A stretch of DNA of 26,719 nucleotides, taken from a virus (lineage: Duplodnaviria > Heunggongvirae > Uroviricota > Caudoviricetes). The stretch lies in IMG/VR virus record IMGVR_UViG_2718217884_000004. One strand, given 5' to 3'. Shown here piece by piece: positions 3,309 to 25,359 of the stretch. Below the pieces are notes generated by a model. That model saw only the letters and a program-made list of their open reading frames with translations. It was not told the DNA's origin and made no database searches. Position 1 is the first letter of the stretch. Each line of letters opens with the position of its first letter. The position numbers and the translations under genes are program-made.

Positions 3309-3751
3309 CTACGGCAGTGCTGGCCATTCAATATCCTGTGCAGTTGACGTATCAACACGGTTCAGCAATACCCGATACTTTTTCCATGCTTCCAGCAACG
3401 AGATTTCTTCCTCCGTTGCAATTTCCAGATCTGCAGCATCCTGAAGCGGCGCAATATGCTCACTGGCTACCTGCATCAGGCTGTTTTTTGTTTCTTCCGC
3501 CTCCCGGATCCGGAACAGTTTTTCTGCTTCCGTATCCTTCACCCAGGCTGTGCCGTTCCACTTCTGATATTCCCCTCCCGGCGATAACCAGGTAACATTT
3601 TCCGGTAACGGACCGAGTTCAGAAATAAATAACGCGTCGCCGGAAGCCACATCATAAACCGTTTTACCCCGATGATCTTCAACGAGATGCCACGATGCCT
3701 CATCACTGTTGAAAACAGCCACGAAGCCTGCCGGAATATCTGGCGGTGCAA

Positions 3752-8770: not shown

Positions 8771-9115
8771 GATGGTGTTAACTCCAGTCATCGCTGGCAC
8801 TACCACTGCTGGTTCAGAGTTAAAAAAACTATGATTTTTTTCATGATGTTACCGTAGTATGTGAGTATCCATCGAATAGACACCAAGCAAAAAAGCTCCC
8901 GAAGGAGCCTTCATTTTCACTTTTTTAAATCCAACGACAGACGGCTGGCATTTAAGTATTGTGAAATATTATCAAATGTAATCATCATTGATTTACAAAA
9001 GATACATTTTGCCCCGAAAGGATTCATGTCAGAAACATCAAAAGATGATGTTCTATACTGGGAACCATGACAACACGGGCATCTAAAGTGAATATGGTTT
9101 GTAATATTGTCTACC

Positions 9116-9328
9116 TCAAAGCGCCACTACATGAACAGCGGCAGGACCTTTAGGTCCGTTCTCAATACCAAATTCAACTTCCTGATTCTCAGTTAATGTT
9201 TTGAAATCGTTGCTCTGAATTGCTGAGAAATGGACAAACACATCTTTGCTGCCATCTTTCGGCGTGATGAAACCAAAACCTTTTTCAGGGTTAAACCATT
9301 TCACTAAACCAGTCATTTTGTTAGACAT
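9116..9328 (-). CDS. cspI: Cold shock protein, CspA family
   Basis: 70-aa [41 protein letters not shown]... with the RNP1/RNP2 motifs; long upstream leader typical of csp genes. Confidence 0.85.
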
Positions 9329-9689
9329 AATTATTACCTTTTGAAGAAATTAGCCCTTGGGCAGAATGGTCCGAAAAAAATATCAGAGAGAAAAACCAAC
9401 AAGGAAATCTCAAGAGGTACAAATAATAAAATTATAACAATGACTGCTTCAGATAAATTTGTAACAAACCAGAACACCATTAACGCATGATTAACCACCC
9501 ATAGCAAGGATTACTTTTGTAAAGAAAAACACAGCAATGAAAGAATAGCTTTATTTATTAATAAAACGTGTCATTCTGATTAAGACCTTTTATCTTACCC
9601 TTAAGATTTCAGGAATTTTGGCTCATGGAAGAGTCCTTTTTATTTAAATTTTACATTCCGCGATGTAAATGTTCCGATTTAATATTACC

Positions 9690-19224: not shown

Positions 19225-19289
19225 TGATCTTACACAGCAATAGTGGACACGCGGCTAAGTGAGTAAACTCTCAGTCAGAGGTGACTCAC

Positions 19290-19589
19290 ATGACAAAAAC
19301 AGTATCAACCAGTAAAAAACCCCGTAAACAGCATTCGCCTGAATTTCGCAGTGAAGCCCTGAAGCTTGCTGAACGCATCGGTGTTACTGCCGCAGCCCGT
19401 GAACTCAGCCTGTATGAATCACAACTCTACAACTGGCGCAGTAAACAGCAAAATCAGCAGACGTCTTCTGAACGTGAACTGGAGATGTCTACCGAGATTG
19501 CACGTCTCAAACGCCAGCTGGCAGAACGGGATGAAGAGCTGGCTATCCTCCAAAAGGCCGCGACATACTTCGCGAAGCGCCTGAAATGA
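19290..19589 (+). CDS. insE: IS3 transposase OrfA (99 aa, HTH)
   Basis: [53 protein letters not shown]... from the first ATG (the track ORF starts at a GTG at 19281). Confidence 0.9.
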
Positions 19590-20452
19590 AGTATGTCTTT
19601 ATTGAAAAACATCAGGCTGAGTTCAGCATCAAAGCAATGTGCCGCGTGCTCCGGGTGGCCCGCAGCGGCTGGTATACGTGGTGTCAGCGGCGGACAAGGA
19701 TAAGCACGCGTCAGCAGTTCCGCCAACACTGCGACAGCGTTGTCCTCGCGGCTTTTACCCGGTCAAAACAGCGTTACGGTGCCCCACGCCTGACGGATGA
19801 ACTGCGTGCTCAGGGTTACCCCTTTAACGTAAAAACCGTGGCGGCAAGCCTGCGCCGTCAGGGACTGAGGGCAAAGGCCTCCCGGAAGTTCAGCCCGGTC
19901 AGCTACCGCGCACACGGCCTGCCTGTGTCAGAAAATCTGTTGGAGCAGGATTTTTACGCCAGTGGCCCGAACCAGAAGTGGGCAGGAGACATCACGTACT
20001 TACGTACAGATGAAGGCTGGCTGTATCTGGCAGTGGTCATTGACCTGTGGTCACGTGCCGTTATTGGCTGGTCAATGTCGCCACGCATGACGGCGCAACT
20101 GGCCTGCGATGCCCTGCAGATGGCGCTGTGGCGGCGTAAGAGGCCCCGGAACGTTATCGTTCACACGGACCGTGGAGGCCAGTACTGTTCAGCAGATTAT
20201 CAGGCGCAACTGAAGCGGCATAATCTGCGTGGAAGTATGAGCGCAAAAGGTTGCTGCTACGATAATGCCTGCGTGGAAAGCTTCTTTCATTCGCTGAAAG
20301 TGGAATGTATCCATGGAGAACACTTTATCAGCCGGGAAATAATGCGGGCAACGGTGTTTAATTATATCGAATGTGATTACAATCGGTGGCGGCGGCACAG
20401 TTGGTGTGGCGGCCTCAGTCCGGAACAATTTGAAAACAAGAACCTCGCTTAG
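19586..20452 (+). CDS. insF: IS3 transposase OrfB (DDE integrase-type catalytic domain)
   Basis: 288-aa ORF; its ATG overlaps the insE stop (ATGA), the usual OrfA/OrfB frameshift arrangement of IS3. Confidence 0.9.
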
Positions 20453-20483
20453 GCCTGTGTCCATATTACGTGGGTAGGATCAA

Positions 20484-20660
20484 TTCATCATAAACTTTGG
20501 GATCATACTGAAGCTCCCCGCCAGATGCCTCCTGTAGACGCATCGCGCGACCTTCAGGAACCAGTATCCCCCAAGCAGCAACACTTGCCAGCCTCACTCC
20601 TGCGGCATTGGCAAGCTTTGTTTTGCTGCCAAAAAAAGTAATTGCGTCAACTTTAAGCAT
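20484..20660 (-). pseudogene. dicC: dicC 5' part (codons 1-59, Cro-like regulator), interrupted by IS3
   Basis: MLKVDAITFFGSKTKLANAAGVRLASVAAWGILVPEGRAMRLQEASGGELQYDPKVYDE, after which the frame runs into the IS3 end (LILPT-stop). The track ORF 20466..20663 includes those IS3-derived codons. Confidence 0.8.
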
Positions 20661-20673
20661 CAAAGCCCCCTCT

Positions 20674-20691
20674 TGTTAGACTTTTCTAACA
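20674..20691. promoter_or_regulatory. Operator palindrome in the dicC-dicA divergent promoter region
   Basis: TGTTAGA-CTTT-TCTAACA, a perfect 7-bp inverted repeat between the divergent dicC and dicA starts. Confidence 0.6.
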
Positions 20692-20740
20692 TTATTGTGC
20701 GCGGGATACCTAAGTCAAGAAAAATTAGAATTACCTAACT

Positions 20741-21148
20741 ATGGATACAAGAACCCTGGGCCAGCGAGTTCTGGCGCGACGAAAAGAATTACGCTTAACA
20801 CAACGAGAAGCCGCGCGCCTCGCTGGAGTTGCTCACGTCACAATTTCACAATGGGAAAGAGACGAAACCCAGCCAGTCGGAAAACGATTGTTTGCTTTAG
20901 CGGATGCTCTGAAGTGCTCACCTACATGGCTAATGTTTGGTGACGAAGACAAGGCACCAGTGCCTGCACAAGAACTTCATGTGGAAACAGAGCTAACTCC
21001 CAACCACAAAGAATTGATCGAATTATTCGATGCTCTTCCATCTTCCGAGCAGGAAGCCTTGCTGTCTGAAATGCGCGCAAGAGTAGAAAACTTCAACAAA
21101 CTCTTCGAAGAAATGCTTAAAGCGCGTAAAAATAAATCAATAAAATAA
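20741..21148 (+). CDS. dicA: XRE-family HTH repressor DicA
   Basis: 135-aa ORF MDTRTLGQRVLARRKELRLTQREAARLAGVAHVTISQWERDETQPVGKRLFALADAL... Confidence 0.9.
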   Translation: MDTRTLGQRVLARRKELRLTQREAARLAGVAHVTISQWERDETQPVGKRLFALADALKCSPTWLMFGDEDKAPVPAQELHVETELTPNHKELIELFDALPSSEQEALLSEMRARVENFNKLFEEMLKARKNKSIK

Positions 21149-21184
21149 CATTCTTTTCAAGTGATTAGTTGCGCCCACCCTTTT

Positions 21185-21202
21185 TGTTAGATCAATCTAA
21201 CA
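21185..21202. promoter_or_regulatory. Second operator palindrome, at the dicB-operon promoter
   Basis: TGTTAGA-TCAA-TCTAACA; a third partial copy TGTTAG-GTTA-TTCTAA lies at 21221-21236. Confidence 0.55.
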
Positions 21203-21316
21203 AAAAACACTTGCCTCTCATGTTAGGTTATTCTAAATTATTTTCCATCAAGACACCGCACGGTGTTCTCAGCAAACAGTTCCGCTACCCCGGCGTTAAG
21301 GGGAAATGAGGTCAGC

Positions 21317-21472
21317 ATGGATACTATCGATCTTGGCAACAGCGAATCTCTGGTATGTGGCGTGTTCCCCAACCAGGACGGTACGTTCACCGCGATGACG
21401 TATACCAAAAGCAAAACGTTTAAAACCGAAAATGGTGCCCGTCGCTGGCTGGAAAGAAACCCAGGTGAGTGA
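21317..21472 (+). CDS. ydfA: Small protein YdfA (51 aa)
   Basis: MDTIDLGNSESLVCGVFPNQDGTFTAMTYTKSKTFKTENGARRWLERNPGE, from the internal Met of the track ORF. Confidence 0.75.
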   Translation: MDTIDLGNSESLVCGVFPNQDGTFTAMTYTKSKTFKTENGARRWLERNPGE

Positions 21473-21473
21473 T

Positions 21474-21602
21474 ATGGATTTCGACACAATCATGGAAAAG
21501 GCTTACGAAGAATACTTCGAAGGTCTTGCCGACGGCGAAGAAGCTCTCAGCTTCAACGAATTTAAACAGGCGCTTTCCAGTTCGGCAAAATCTAACGGCT
21601 GA
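21474..21602 (+). CDS. ydfB: Small protein YdfB (42 aa)
   Basis: Hand translation MDFDTIMEKAYEEYFEGLADGEEALSFNEFKQALSSSAKSNG; starts 1 nt after the ydfA stop. Confidence 0.65.
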   Translation: MDFDTIMEKAYEEYFEGLADGEEALSFNEFKQALSSSAKSNG

Positions 21603-21631
21603 TAAGCGAAACAGCACCGCGAGGAATCAGT

Positions 21632-21850
21632 ATGCAGAAACGAGAACCCGTCATCATCGCGCCAGACTATACCGATGATGAACTTTATGAGTGGATGCGC
21701 CAGAAAATTAATGCAGCGCAGGATTTGAAATGGGCCAATGAAACCAGGGCTAAGCAGGCTGAAAATCTGTCCGCTCTGGAGCAGGATATCACCAATCTGG
21801 AAAAAGCAGCGGCATTAAGCATTGCCAGAATGATTACATACCCGCGTTAG
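21632..21850 (+). CDS. ydfC: Small protein YdfC (72 aa)
   Basis: Track ORF MQKREPVIIAPDYTDDELYEWMRQKINAAQDLKWANETRAKQAENL... Confidence 0.75.
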   Translation: MQKREPVIIAPDYTDDELYEWMRQKINAAQDLKWANETRAKQAENLSALEQDITNLEKAAALSIARMITYPR

Positions 21851-22190
21851 TAGCTAATCAACAAAGCTAAGGTTAGTAATTAAGGAGTTCTCCACGGGTG
21901 AGGTGGAGTGCGTGCGCCGGACACGGGTGAGCATCCGGCACTGACAGTTTACTGAAAGGATATTTCCCTGAAAAGTCAGACCATAACGCGAAAGCGCACG
22001 GCGAGGTAGCTGGTTCATAGATAGCCTGTCGTTAAATTTTCGTCGACCGTGCGCTTCCGGTTGTGGCAACCCGCGAAATGGCGCGGCGGTAAGTATGGCG
22101 GGGTTATTCCTTCCCCGTTGAGGACACCGGGTTGTCAGGTTGACCATACGCTTAAGTGACAACCCCGCTGCAACGCCCTCTGTTATCAAT

Positions 22191-22248
22191 TTTCTGGTGA
22201 CGTTTGGCGGTATCAGTTTTACTCCGTGACTGCTCTGCCGCCCTTTTT
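22191..22248 (+). ncRNA. dicF: DicF small RNA (ftsZ and manX translational repressor) with its intrinsic terminator
   Basis: TTTCTGGTGACGTTTGGCGGTATCAGTTTTACTCCGTGACTGCTCTGCCGCCC followed by TTTTT, between ydfC and dicB. The GGCGG...CCGCC stem plus U-run forms the terminator. Ends are approximate. Confidence 0.6.
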
Positions 22249-22417
22249 AAAGTGAATTTTGTGATGTGGTGAATGCGGCTGAGCGCACGCGGAACAGTTA
22301 AAACCAAAAACAGTGTTATGGGTGGATTCTCTGTATCCGGCGTTAATTGTTAACTGGTTAACGTCACCTGGAGGCACCAGGCACTGCATCACAAAATTCA
22401 TTGTTGAGGACGCGATA

Positions 22418-22606
22418 ATGAAAACGTTATTACCAAACGTTAATACGTCTGAAGGTTGTTTTGAAATTGGTGTCACTATCAGTAACCCAGTATTTACTGA
22501 AGATGCCATTAACAAGAGAAAACAAGAACGGGAGCTATTAAATAAAATATGCATTGTTTCAATGCTGGCTCGTTTACGTCTGATGCCAAAAGGATGTGCA
22601 CAATGA
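22418..22606 (+). CDS. dicB: Cell division inhibitor DicB (62 aa)
   Basis: MKTLLPNVNTSEGCFEIGVTISNPVFTEDAINKRKQERELLNKICIVSMLARLRLMPKGCAQ, from the internal Met of the track ORF, with GAGGA upstream. Confidence 0.85.
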   Translation: MKTLLPNVNTSEGCFEIGVTISNPVFTEDAINKRKQERELLNKICIVSMLARLRLMPKGCAQ

Positions 22607-22794
22607 ATTCAGCATTTGTGCTTGTTCTGACAGTTTTTCTTGTTTCCGGAGAGCCAGTTGATATTGCAGTCAGTGTGCACAGGACAATGCAGGAGTGTAT
22701 GACTGCAGCAACCGAACAGAAAATTCCCGGTAACTGTTACCCGGTCGATAAAGTTATTCACCAGGATAATATCGAAATCCCGGCAGGTCTTTAA
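22603..22794 (+). CDS. ydfD: Small membrane protein YdfD (63 aa), reported as a lysis protein
   Basis: MNSAFVLVLTVFLVSGEPVDIAVSVHRTMQECMTAATEQKIPGNCYPVDKVIHQDNIEIPAGL; its ATG overlaps the dicB stop (ATGA). Confidence 0.75.
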   Translation: MNSAFVLVLTVFLVSGEPVDIAVSVHRTMQECMTAATEQKIPGNCYPVDKVIHQDNIEIPAGL

Positions 22795-22887
22795 AACAGT
22801 TCCGTAATAAATATCCGGTTTCATTCTTATATGCCAGCAATGGCAGGGATTTGTTCATCCTTAAATCTGTCATGAGGTTAAAACAAA

Positions 22888-25359
22888 ATGAGTAAAGTCT
22901 TTATTTGCGCCGCTATTCCTGACGAACTGGCAACAAGGGAAGAAGGCGCTGTGGCTGTAGCCACAGCCATTGAAGCTGGCGACGAACGCCGTGCTCGAGC
23001 AAAATTTCACTGGCAGTTCCTGGAACATTATCCGGCTGCTCAGGACTGCGCTTATAAATTTATTGTCTGCGAGGATAAACCTGGCATACCCCGCCCTGCC
23101 CTCGATTCATGGGATGCTGAATATATGCAGGAAAACCGCTGGGATGAGGAGTCTGCTTCTTTTGTCCCGGTTGAGACTGAATCCGATCCGATGAACGTCA
23201 CTTTTGACAAGCTGGCCCCTGAAGTACAGAACGCTGTCATGGTTAAGTTCGACACATGTGAAAACATCACCGTTGATATGGTTATTAGCGCACAGGAATT
23301 GTTGCAGGAAGACATGGCAACATTCGACGGACATATCGTTGAAGCGTTGATGAAAATGCCAGAAGTTAACGCCATGTATCCGGAGCTTAAGTTGCACGCC
23401 ATTGGGTGGGTTAAGCATAAATGTATTCCTGGTGCTAAATGGCCCGAAATTCAGGCAGAGATGCGCATCTGGAAAAAACGTCGCGAAGGTGAACGCAAGG
23501 AAACCGGAAAATACACGTCTGTTGTTGATCTCGCCCGCGCCAGAACCAATCAACAGTACACTGAAAATTCAACAGGAAAAATCAGCCCGGTCATTGCTGC
23601 CATTCATCGCGAATACAAGCAGACATGGAAAACACTGGATGACGAACTGGCCTACGCTCTCTGGCCTGGTGATGTGGATGCCGGAAACATTGACGGCAGC
23701 ATCCATCGCTGGGCAAAAAAAGAAGTTATCGACAACGACCGCGAAGACTGGAAGCGTATCTCGGCATCAATGCGCAAACAGCCTGATGCCCTTCGCTACG
23801 ACCGCCAGACTATTTTTGGCCTTGTCCGTGAGCGTCCGATCGACATTCACAAAGATCCCATAGCACTGAACAAATATATCTGCGAATACCTGACGACAAA
23901 GGGCGTGTTTGAGAATGAAGAAACAGACCTGGGCACTGTTGATGTTCTCCAGTCATCAGAAACACAAACTGATGCAGTGGAAACTGAGGTATCTGATATC
24001 CCAAAAAATGAAACCGCGCCGGAAGCTGAACCATCTGTAGAGCGTGAGGGGCCGTTCTATTTCCTCTTCGCAGATAAGGACGGAGAAAAATACGGTCGCG
24101 CAAACAAACTTTCTGGTCTGGATAAGGCACTGGCTGCTGGCGCCACTGAAATCACAAAAGAAGAATATTTTGCCCGAAAAAATGGCACATACACGGGCTT
24201 ACCGCAAAATGTAGATACCGCTGAAGATTCAGAACAACCAGAGCCGATAAAAGTTACCGCTGACGAAGTAAACAAAATTATGCAGGCAGCCAATATCAGC
24301 CAGCCTGACGCCGATAAGTTGCTTGCTGCATCACGTGGTGAATTTGTTGAAGGGATTAGTGACCCGAATGATCCGAAATGGGTTAAGGGGATCCAGACCC
24401 GCGATTCTGTGAACCAGAACCAGCATGAATCGGAACGGAACTACCAAAAAGCGGAACAAAACAGCACAAATGCGTTACAAAACGAGCCAGAAACGAAACA
24501 GCCTGAACCAGTGGCGCAACTGGAAGTGGAAAAAGTCTGCACCGCCTGCGGTCAGACCGGCGGCGGCAACTGCCCTGATTGTGGCGCGGTGATGGGCGAC
24601 GCAACATACCAGGAAACATTCGATGAAGAGTATCAGGTTGAAGTTCAGGAAGATGATCTGGAGGAAATGGAAGGCGCTGAACATCCACACAAGGAGAACA
24701 CTGGCGGCAATCAGCATCACAATAGCGATAATGAAACTGGCGAGACGGCAGATCACTCAATTAAGGTGAACGGTCATCACGAAATCACATCCACCAGCAG
24801 GACGTGTGACCATCTAATGATCGACCTTGAAACCATGGGAAAAAATCCTGATGCCCCGATCATCTCAATAGGTGCAATATTTTTCGATCCGCAAACCGGA
24901 GATATGGGACCGGAATTTAGTAAGACTATCGATCTGGAAACTGCTGGCGGAGTCATTGATCGGGACACCATTAAATGGTGGCTTAAGCAATCACGCGAAG
25001 CGCAATCTGCCATTATGACCGATGAAATCCCGTTAGATGATGCACTGTTACAATTGCGGGAATTTATCGACGAAAACTCCGGTGAATTTTTTGTTCAGGT
25101 TTGGGGAAATGGAGCCAACTTCGACAACACGATTTTGCGCCGTTCATACGAACGGCAGGGGATCCCCTGCCCGTGGCGTTACTACAACGATCGCGATGTA
25201 CGCACAATCGTTGAGCTGGGGAAAGCCATAGACTTCGATGCCAGAACGGCTATTCCATTCGAAGGTGAGCGCCATAATGCACTTGATGACGCCCGTTACC
25301 AGGCAAAATACGTTTCAGTTATCTGGCAAAAACTGATCCCGAGTCAGGCTGATTCTTAA
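22888..25359 (+). CDS. Large prophage protein (823 aa): acidic N-terminal region with a RecE-like segment, a CxxC...CxxC zinc-ribbon-like motif, and a C-terminal DnaQ-like (DEDDh) 3'-5' exonuclease domain
   Basis: Uninterrupted 823-aa ORF. Segment DKLLAASRGEFVEGISDPNDPKWVKGIQTRD resembles the central part of RecE. CTACGQTGGGNCPDCG near residue 550. C-terminal motifs MIDLETMG, WGNGANFDNTIL and HNALDDARYQA fit the three Exo motifs of DEDDh exonucleases. Confidence 0.8.
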   Translation: MSKVFICAAIPDELATREEGAVAVATAIEAGDERRARAKFHWQFLEHYPAAQDCAYKFIVCEDKPGIPRPALDSWDAEYMQENRWDEESASFVPVETESDPMNVTFDKLAPEVQNAVMVKFDTCENITVDMVISAQELLQEDMATFDGHIVEALMKMPEVNAMYPELKLHAIGWVKHKCIPGAKWPEIQAEMRIWKKRREGERKETGKYTSVVDLARARTNQQYTENSTGKISPVIAAIHREYKQTWKTLDDELAYALWPGDVDAGNIDGSIHRWAKKEVIDNDREDWKRISASMRKQPDALRYDRQTIFGLVRERPIDIHKDPIALNKYICEYLTTKGVFENEETDLGTVDVLQSSETQTDAVETEVSDIPKNETAPEAEPSVEREGPFYFLFADKDGEKYGRANKLSGLDKALAAGATEITKEEYFARKNGTYTGLPQNVDTAEDSEQPEPIKVTADEVNKIMQAANISQPDADKLLAASRGEFVEGISDPNDPKWVKGIQTRDSVNQNQHESERNYQKAEQNSTNALQNEPETKQPEPVAQLEVEKVCTACGQTGGGNCPDCGAVMGDATYQETFDEEYQVEVQEDDLEEMEGAEHPHKENTGGNQHHNSDNETGETADHSIKVNGHHEITSTSRTCDHLMIDLETMGKNPDAPIISIGAIFFDPQTGDMGPEFSKTIDLETAGGVIDRDTIKWWLKQSREAQSAIMTDEIPLDDALLQLREFIDENSGEFFVQVWGNGANFDNTILRRSYERQGIPCPWRYYNDRDVRTIVELGKAIDFDARTAIPFEGERHNALDDARYQAKYVSVIWQKLIPSQADS

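Follow-up and report, generated by a model that had tools for sequence, protein, structure and literature searches.

Comparative evidence for a conserved pseudoknotted RNA domain in front of DicF in the dicB operon of Qin-type prophages

DicF has been studied since 1989 and phage P1 is among the best-annotated phages, yet what is the long untranslated stretch that precedes this small RNA (sRNA) in the dicB operon, and does it do more than carry DicF until it is cut free? We addressed this question in a window of 26,719 nucleotides (the whole stretch of DNA that was analysed; IMG/VR record IMGVR_UViG_2718217884_000004), in which the region of interest belongs to a Qin-type lambdoid prophage of E. 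coli and corresponds to its dicB (dicBF) operon (Table 1). Our comparisons show that the most conserved RNA of the dicF region is a 115-nt pseudoknotted domain in front of DicF, here called the module, rather than DicF itself.

Elsewhere in the window, overlapping ORFs of 102 aa and 288 aa on the plus strand (19281-20452), which adjoin dicC and by eye resemble an IS3-family transposase pair, are probably an insertion sequence in the immunity region. Two further matches above the Rfam gathering score, to IS009 (221 bits) and to a cspA-thermoregulator-like leader (114 bits), lie at 3343-3541 and 9089-9473, both on the minus strand; the second of these probably represents a leader belonging to a cold-shock gene of the prophage.

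Table 1. Features of the dicB operon region, in positions of the window.
Feature	Position	Strand	Basis or remark
dicC		-	First in the gene order of the operon region
dicA	20741-21148		ORF list
ydfA			DUF1391 (Pfam); followed by ydfB and ydfC
ydfC CDS	21632..21850	+	72-aa ORF; YdfC annotation in related E. coli records
Domain A, three hairpins H1-H3	21890..21985	+	MFE fold; alignment of 33 relatives
Domain A, H1	21890-21908
Domain A, H2	21916-21939		GCCGGA/UCCGGC
Domain A, H3	~21941-21979
Domain B, long hairpin AGCGCACGGCGA ... UCGACCGUGCGCU with variable apical part	21993..22055	+	MFE; RNAalifold
Pseudoknotted module, whole domain	22060..22174	+	Covariance model R1, 162 bits; 83 homologues aligned
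P0, closing stem	22060-67/22167-74	+
P1, hairpin	22071-75/22082-86	+	Stem CCGCG/CGCGG
P2	22087-90/22126-29	+
Pseudoknot 5′ strand GUAUGG	22093..22098	+	Partner 22144-22149
P3, hairpin	22099-103/22113-17	+	Sequence and length variable
P4	22130-37/22157-64	+
P4 loop, motif GGUUGACC-NNN-CGCYURAG, with pseudoknot 3′ strand CCAUAC (22144-22149)	22138..22156	+	Alignment columns invariant
Linker with RNase E site for DicF 5′ end	22175..22191	+	Site placed from published RNase E dependence and RF00039 start
DicF sRNA and intrinsic terminator	22192..22243	+	Rfam RF00039, 76.7 bits
STnc100-like element	22244..22411	+	RF02076, 34.1 bits against a gathering score of 47; z = -4.8
dicB	22419-22606		Followed by ydfD and an intact exonuclease-like gene

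The leader as DicF precursor

The ydfC stop codon at 21850 forms the 5′ boundary of the leader, and about 340 nt without a conserved ORF run from there to DicF (gap 21851-22191, between the ORF end at 21850 and the start of the RF00039 match at 22192), as a first-pass annotation made from the sequence alone had described. According to PMC5069750 and PMC9438474 (both citing Faubladier et al. 1990), the 5′ end of DicF is generated by an RNase E cut of the polycistronic ydfABC-dicF-dicB transcript, and its 3′ end either by intrinsic termination, giving a 53-nt RNA, or by RNase III cleavage of the full-length transcript, giving a 72-nt RNA. The first-pass annotation had read the leader as a precursor from which processing frees DicF, in agreement with the RNase E dependence described in the two papers, and had named a DicF promoter directly upstream as the finding that would overturn the proposal; a scan for plus-strand sigma-70-like sites from 20400 to 23000 returned none. 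The DicF model RF00039 has no match within 21851-22191, and its sole match lies at 22192-22243. The leader is precursor sequence, not DicF. This processed-precursor reading is correct but long established, and it overlooks the main feature of the leader, the conserved pseudoknotted domain, which contains one of the two short stems that the first-pass annotation had quoted. The RNase E cleavage region lies about 17 nt 3′ of P0, the closing stem of the module, and the predicted fold has a small hairpin in the linker region (22182-88/22195-201) with the AU-rich sequence AUUUUC in its loop.

As the 5′ part of the DicF precursor, the 340-nt leader comprises three conserved RNA domains, A, B and the module. 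That it is structured had been put forward as a matter for structure prediction, and by folding energy the signal is weak: the plus strand of the whole leader has a z-score of -1.54, with 7 of 100 shuffles folding equally well, the module alone (the last 115 nt) reaches -2.0, and the minus strand of the leader folds better, at -3.6. With z-scores as weak as these, short perfect stems like the two quoted are by themselves not beyond chance. What makes the structured leader convincing is conservation and covariation among relatives.

Domains A and B are both conserved with covariation near zero. In domain A, for which covariation is almost nil in the alignment of 33 relatives, H1 is replaced by unrelated hairpin sequences in relatives, while H2 is the first of the quoted stems; its presence stands and its coordinates were one base off, the strands lying at 21916-21921 and 21934-21939. 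This stem is paired in 32 of the 33 relatives and almost unvarying in sequence. Domain A also occurs in N-bearing phages that lack the module. In some IMG/VR loci (L031, L046, L056) and in E. coli H66/H67, an insertion interrupts domain A after GCAUCCGGCAC; in H66/H67 it is about 550 bp long and annotated as a hypothetical protein, resembling a moron within the untranslated leader. The stem of domain B is conserved with G-U variants only, and its apical loop is swapped in relatives (RNAalifold). Its base could grow longer if (A)UAAC at 21983-87 paired with GGUUG at 22059-63, the 5′ strand of P0, a pairing that would compete with P0 and offers a possible alternative conformation in Qin-type leaders.

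A boxA-like motif, GUGCUCU(C/U)U, stands directly 5′ of P0 in several lineages (L002, L217, L213, L221; window equivalent 22048-22058), among them cdtI-, Erwinia- and Trabulsiella-type copies. It reads UGCUCUUUC in Trabulsiella and GUGCGCUUCC, a weak version, in Qin-type leaders. We dropped the boxA reading by eye, the motif being weak in Qin-type leaders and missing in phage P1; it remains a hint.

A pseudoknotted module in the last part of the leader

Comparative evidence leads us to the firm view that the last part of the leader is a real, autonomously folding pseudoknotted RNA domain on the transcribed strand, predicted to form a four-way junction with a pseudoknot. Across 77 distinct module sequences, the paired fraction of cells is 95.6%, with compensatory change at 13 pairs; none of 500 shuffles attains the observed values on any of five measures, and slid controls are 32-55% paired. 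Compensatory changes back every helix of the module except P1. P1 is the second stem quoted in the first-pass annotation, located exactly at 22071-22075/22082-22086 as given there, and it is paired in 96% of cells across the 77 distinct sequences without compensatory change. P2 was found independently by RNAalifold, with U-A to C-G covariation. G-U pairs are consistent with the plus strand only. In this family, composed mostly of close enterobacterial relatives, the covariation statistics lean on a few lineages, namely phage P1, P7-type, Izhakiella, Serratia and Pantoea-clade copies. Covariation in the 3′ third of the leader shows that the RNA structure is real.

The pseudoknot varies by clade, reading GUAUGG/CCAUAC in the window, GCAUGG/CCAUGC in phage P1, GACUGG/CCAGUC in L360 and UCUGG/CCAGA in L362. 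Likewise, P4 reads GCGGCCA/UGGCCGC or GCGGACA/UGUCCGC in a divergent Pantoea/Enterobacter clade, and both the pseudoknot and P4 are fully compensated in that clade. In a set of 20 sequences that covers every clade, pairing reaches 96% of cells and compensation 9 of 18 pairs; for the pseudoknot these values are 97.5% and 2 of 6. The unpaired segments AAG, (A/G)CCG and GGUUGACC-NNN-CGCYURAG are nearly invariant across module copies, and invariant loops imply a conserved binding partner.

No Rfam family covers the module at gathering or at permissive thresholds (E <= 10 for the window, E <= 1 for phages P1 and cdtI), and we found no description of it in Rfam 15 or in the searchable literature, although a mention in older papers is possible. 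Thus, while the leader as DicF precursor is textbook knowledge, the module appears to be undescribed. An ops/RfaH reading was dropped by eye: the module and the terminator arm both contain GGCGGUA, for which P7-type copies have GGCGGCA.

Distribution of the module and exchange of its neighbours

Many E. coli chromosomes, that of K-12 among them, carry the leader at 99-100% identity; it has a match in 4428 of 5426 complete E. coli genomes, covering at least 80% of its length in 3493. BLAST against phages shows that it is a mosaic, in which interval positions 210-332 recur at 78-90% identity in otherwise unrelated phages (cdtI, Stx2c-converting phages, 2H10, pPE4, P1/P7 and P1-like plasmids). 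Between a Qin-type prophage and phage P1 the module is about 78% identical over 97 nt. The P1 copy begins about 20-30 nt past the start of the C1-controlled ban promoter, and the label "dicF-like region" in the P1 record overlaps the 3′ part of the module and the next terminator hairpin. No DicF match was found in this region with the Rfam model, and the label shows that the similarity had been noticed earlier. In cdtI, pPE4, F1055, mEp460 and PPompW, the module follows a repressor gene (cI or dicA) and the early-left promoter.

Further copies were sought by pattern scans of IMG/VR and GTDB genomes filtered with covariance model R1. The P4-loop motif used as a search pattern retrieved all family members, most matches of a loose genome-wide pattern were due to chance and were removed by R1, and all matches of the pattern AGGTTGACCATYCGC were unrelated environmental sequences. 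In total, 83 copies were found, in Escherichia, Shigella, Citrobacter, Salmonella phage F1055, Serratia symbiotica, Erwinia, Trabulsiella and Izhakiella. Each contig searched carries a single copy, co-oriented with the operon and located in the leftward operon. A scan aimed at pseudoknot variants added the divergent clade, found in P1-like plasmids of about 90 kb in Pantoea and Enterobacter. Judged by this distribution of sequences, the 115-nt domain is conserved more widely than DicF itself and far more widely than a mere precursor spacer would need.

In every E. coli-type copy, an sRNA-like hairpin and its U-tract lie downstream of the module, within about 12-70 nt, with the operon genes beyond. 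At least ten different such cargos, of which DicF is one, follow the same module, most of them framed by UUGGCGG...CCGCC(C)UUUUU; the adjoining sRNA is freely exchanged while the loop bases of the module stay almost invariant. Phage pPE4 (L003 2600-2770) has one module followed by two tandem copies of sRNA and terminator; this phage is named as an Actinobacillus phage, but the region resembles that of a Rac/Qin-type phage of E. coli. The terminator hairpin of the cargo is long in Erwinia, Serratia, Trabulsiella, Izhakiella and one IMG/VR contig (L217, L173, L213, L221 and L048), where it encloses AGGAG, about 7 nt and AUG; it may contain a small ORF or be a dual-function sRNA.

The cargo sRNA is followed by the STnc100-like element and then by dicB, kil or, in phage P1, tciA. 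In the window, the STnc100-like element has a closing stem of about 28 bp, lies immediately 5′ of dicB and is likely the RNase III site for the 72-nt DicF. The published 72-nt end would fall at about 22263, in the 5′ arm of this element. The element is also found 5′ of kil in pPE4, Rac-SA53 and PhiR5_2, and 5′ of tciA in phage P1 (L001 3842-3961); it has the look of a 5′ leader common to the division-inhibitor genes of phages.

The Pantoea plasmids have a different order, consisting of an intrinsic terminator, the module, a plain hairpin without a U-tract, a tRNA-like sequence and then TerB/tciA; no obvious P0 was seen by eye in the Pantoea copy. In the Pantoea/Enterobacter plasmids (L362 5033-5307; L365; L367), the terminator lies immediately 5′ of the divergent module, the tRNA-like sequence has acceptor and T-arm features and is not called by ARAGORN, and some 800 nt beyond it there is a suppressor-type tRNA (anticodon UUA).

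The module can also be absent from an otherwise similar leader. PhiSTEC1589-Stx1c and PhiR5_2, which encode N, retain domains A and B together with the sRNA and the STnc100-like element and have lost the interior of the module, with GGUUGUG-AAUA-ACAAC in its place. Rac-type phages lack N as well as the module; they have a similar mini hairpin and share the layout of sRNA, terminator and kil; a search with R1 found no module in phiSTEC1589-Stx1c, PhiR5_2 or the Rac-type phages. In module-less relatives (L232 1689-1703; L236, region 1512-1527), the mini hairpin GGUUGU(G)-A(A)AUA-AC(A/G)AC stands exactly where P0 closes the module. The mini hairpin at the P0 position suggests that the module acts as a unit that is plugged into, or removed from, a hairpin loop. 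Conversely, tblastn with two types of N query (933W and lambda) gave no match in 150 module-bearing loci, and no N gene was found in the annotations or ORFs of the module-bearing loci examined; the correlation is based on two N-bearing lineages and these two query types.

Possible functions and relation to known systems

Tentatively, we suggest, as the leading one of several explanations, that the module acts in cis by binding a host factor and helping RNA polymerase to cross the DicF terminator and the untranslated region on its way to dicB. As the RNA emerges, the invariant loops would provide a binding site for a conserved component of the host, most likely elongating RNA polymerase, and the module would work like HK022 put or the Bacillus EAR element. 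Polymerase would thereby pass a DicF-type intrinsic terminator and a long stretch of untranslated, Rho-exposed RNA to reach the division-inhibitor and recombination genes (dicB/kil/tciA, exonuclease, xis, int) in phages without a recognisable N antiterminator, and P0 would also form a structured boundary beside the RNase E site. In agreement with this model, the module is always found in a repressor-controlled early operon and co-oriented with it, E. coli-type copies have an intrinsic terminator soon after and operon genes beyond, and a long untranslated stretch plus terminator precede the toxic division-inhibitor genes. Moreover, it is exactly the interior of the module that the two N-bearing phages have lost, and N is not detectable in module-bearing loci with the queries used. 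There are also precedents in EAR, which is pseudoknotted, of similar size and located within an operon, and in put, which needs no phage proteins (PMC9378689). However, put has neither sequence nor architectural likeness to the module, and in Pantoea the module sits after a terminator while the next hairpin lacks a U-tract. Rac-type phages, lacking both N and the module, have the same sRNA-terminator-kil layout, and the module is therefore not required for read-through. In a broader form, which we put forward with similar reserve, the module could represent a new class of phage RNA that binds a core host machine via its invariant loops, being either a third RNA-only processive antiterminator or a tRNA-shaped decoy or ribozyme in early sRNA arrays.

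Several observations could also be explained if the module were purely a scaffold for processing and insulation, in which the folded block and the terminator hairpin frame a short, single-stranded, AU-rich stretch, confine RNase E to one cutting site, give the sRNA a defined 5′-monophosphate end and keep upstream mRNA from mispairing with the sRNA. The 5′ end of DicF is RNase E dependent (PMC5069750, PMC9438474), the cleavage region falls in the loop of the small hairpin 17 nt after P0, the module always lies beside small RNA genes (DicF-like sRNAs in E. coli-type copies, the tRNA-like sequence in Pantoea), and stem-loops direct MicL processing (cited in PMC9438474). Module-less relatives keep a mini hairpin at the position of P0, where a helix seems to matter, and P0 therefore probably has a role as a processing scaffold. 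For the module as a whole we consider this explanation unlikely: the same sRNAs occur with the mini hairpin only, so the interior of about 100 nt is dispensable for sRNA production, and invariant unpaired bases and a pseudoknot shared by P1, lambdoid phages and Pantoea plasmids would be left unexplained. A stable ncRNA that is excised like a tRNA and acts in trans, binding or titrating some protein or RNA of the host such as an RNase, chaperone or defence component, fits an autonomous fold closed by P0 that is gained or lost as a unit, an invariant core whose position relative to terminators varies by clade, a place in RNA-gene arrays (sRNAs; tRNAs in P1 and Pantoea plasmids) and a four-way junction resembling a cloverleaf. 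We nevertheless regard it as doubtful, given that the module has neither a promoter nor a terminator of its own, that ARAGORN finds no tRNA in 21500-22600, leaving a loose resemblance in the four-way junction only, and that complementarity to neighbouring sequence does not exceed that of shuffled controls.

The complexity of the fold, with its invariant junction and loop bases, is also that of an aptamer, and the module might be a sensor, either a riboswitch or a protein-responsive leader, whose folding state sets termination, Rho access or RNase E cleavage. An intrinsic terminator directly downstream in most copies, the competition of helix B with P0 for GGUUG in Qin-type leaders and the global MFE of the Qin copy, which alone pairs the GGCGCGGCGG stretch of the module with the 3′ arm of the terminator, would fit such a sensor. 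Yet in 5 of 6 variants folded, the outer helices of the module and the terminator coexist in the global MFE, and folding the 3′ part by itself produced the terminator in each of the five variants tested. Since terminator and module form together in most variants, there is no conserved antiterminator, and we rejected a terminator/antiterminator switch. GGUGG variants of the terminator have no matching change in the module and no covarying competitor, no Rfam riboswitch matches at E <= 10, and the Pantoea copy has no terminator after the module; we regard a sensor as improbable. Small ribozymes are common in phage RNA-gene settings of this type, and a self-cleaving ribozyme of an undescribed class that separates the small RNAs of the early transcript would match a compact pseudoknotted fold with invariant core bases, borne by phages and adjoining sRNA and tRNA-like genes. 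We think this highly improbable: hammerhead, twister, pistol, hatchet and HDV-like models have no match (window E <= 10; P1 and cdtI E <= 1), the topology is unlike that of HDV in having a hairpin between the two 5′ strands of the pseudoknot, and the sole mapped end, the 5′ end of DicF, is RNase E dependent in the literature cited above. Finally, a minus-strand ORF of 111 aa (21854-22189) matches the extent of the leader almost exactly, a "hypothetical protein" is annotated there in some phage records, and the minus strand folds better than the plus strand, raising the idea of a protein gene or a DNA-level site instead of an RNA element. This we hold to be scarcely credible. The ORF has no Pfam match, and it is broken in 33 of 60 distinct related leaders, where the stop-free stretch is shorter than 100 codons; among close relatives, the P3 loop carries 1-nt indels that break its frame. 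Helix substitutions are compensatory, G-U pairs suit the plus strand alone and the orientation always follows the operon. On the plus strand, no ORF of at least 25 aa spans the leader.

If antitermination is the function of the module, control of read-through into dicB/kil and the recombination genes would explain early-operon expression in N-less Qin-type and P1-like elements and would add a new RNA-only regulator of RNA polymerase. If it is instead a processing element or a trans-acting RNA, the annotation and engineering of prophage sRNA cassettes would change. In either case, the module is a candidate new RNA family; it is present in E. coli K-12 and phage P1 and hence readily testable, with the pseudoknot (22093-98/22144-49) as a concrete target for mutation.

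Among known systems, the closest in setting are the put elements of HK022 (putL/putR), which suppress termination by binding the zinc-binding domain of the RNA polymerase β′ subunit. Each put element is about 70 nt long, forms two stem-loops with a triplex and acts without phage proteins (PMC9378689). Comparable in placement with the module, especially with the copy in phage P1, put is a structured RNA in an early operon of an N-less lambdoid phage with a promoter upstream and terminators downstream; for this placement the picture is mixed, since it is seen in the copies of P1, cdtI, pPE4, F1055 and Qin-type phages, whereas in the Pantoea plasmids the terminator precedes. In contrast to put, the module is about 115 nt long with a four-way junction and a pseudoknot and occurs once per contig, in the leftward operon, rather than once in each early operon. 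Homology to put was rejected, with no sequence or model match in HK022: the best hit of R1 with filters off scores 11.1 bits (E 0.04) over 37 nt in the tail-gene region. EAR RNA of Bacillales eps operons is pseudoknotted, about 120 nt long, lies between operon genes and promotes terminator read-through. The Qin copy of the module is similarly intra-operonic, following ydfC, whereas phylum and sequence differ and no Rfam family matches at E <= 10.

The C4 RNA of P1/P7 and the CI RNA of P4 are cloverleaf-like, are processed from the untranslated leader of a repressor-controlled phage operon and act as antisense RNAs that pair with sites in that transcript; phage P1 carries both C4 and the module. 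We rejected an antisense or immunity RNA of this type: in four phages, duplex energies between module and operon are no better than those of shuffled modules, and the Rfam C4 model has no match in the window, P1 or cdtI. The module also resembles DicF- and MicL-type precursors derived from 3′UTRs or operons, in which RNase E makes the 5′ end of an sRNA beside a structured element of the same transcript; unlike these, it is a separate domain upstream of the sRNA, RF00039 covering 22192-22243 only. From STnc100 (RF02076), whose sub-threshold relative lies downstream of DicF, the module differs in sequence and fold, while both are conserved structured elements of the same untranslated region.
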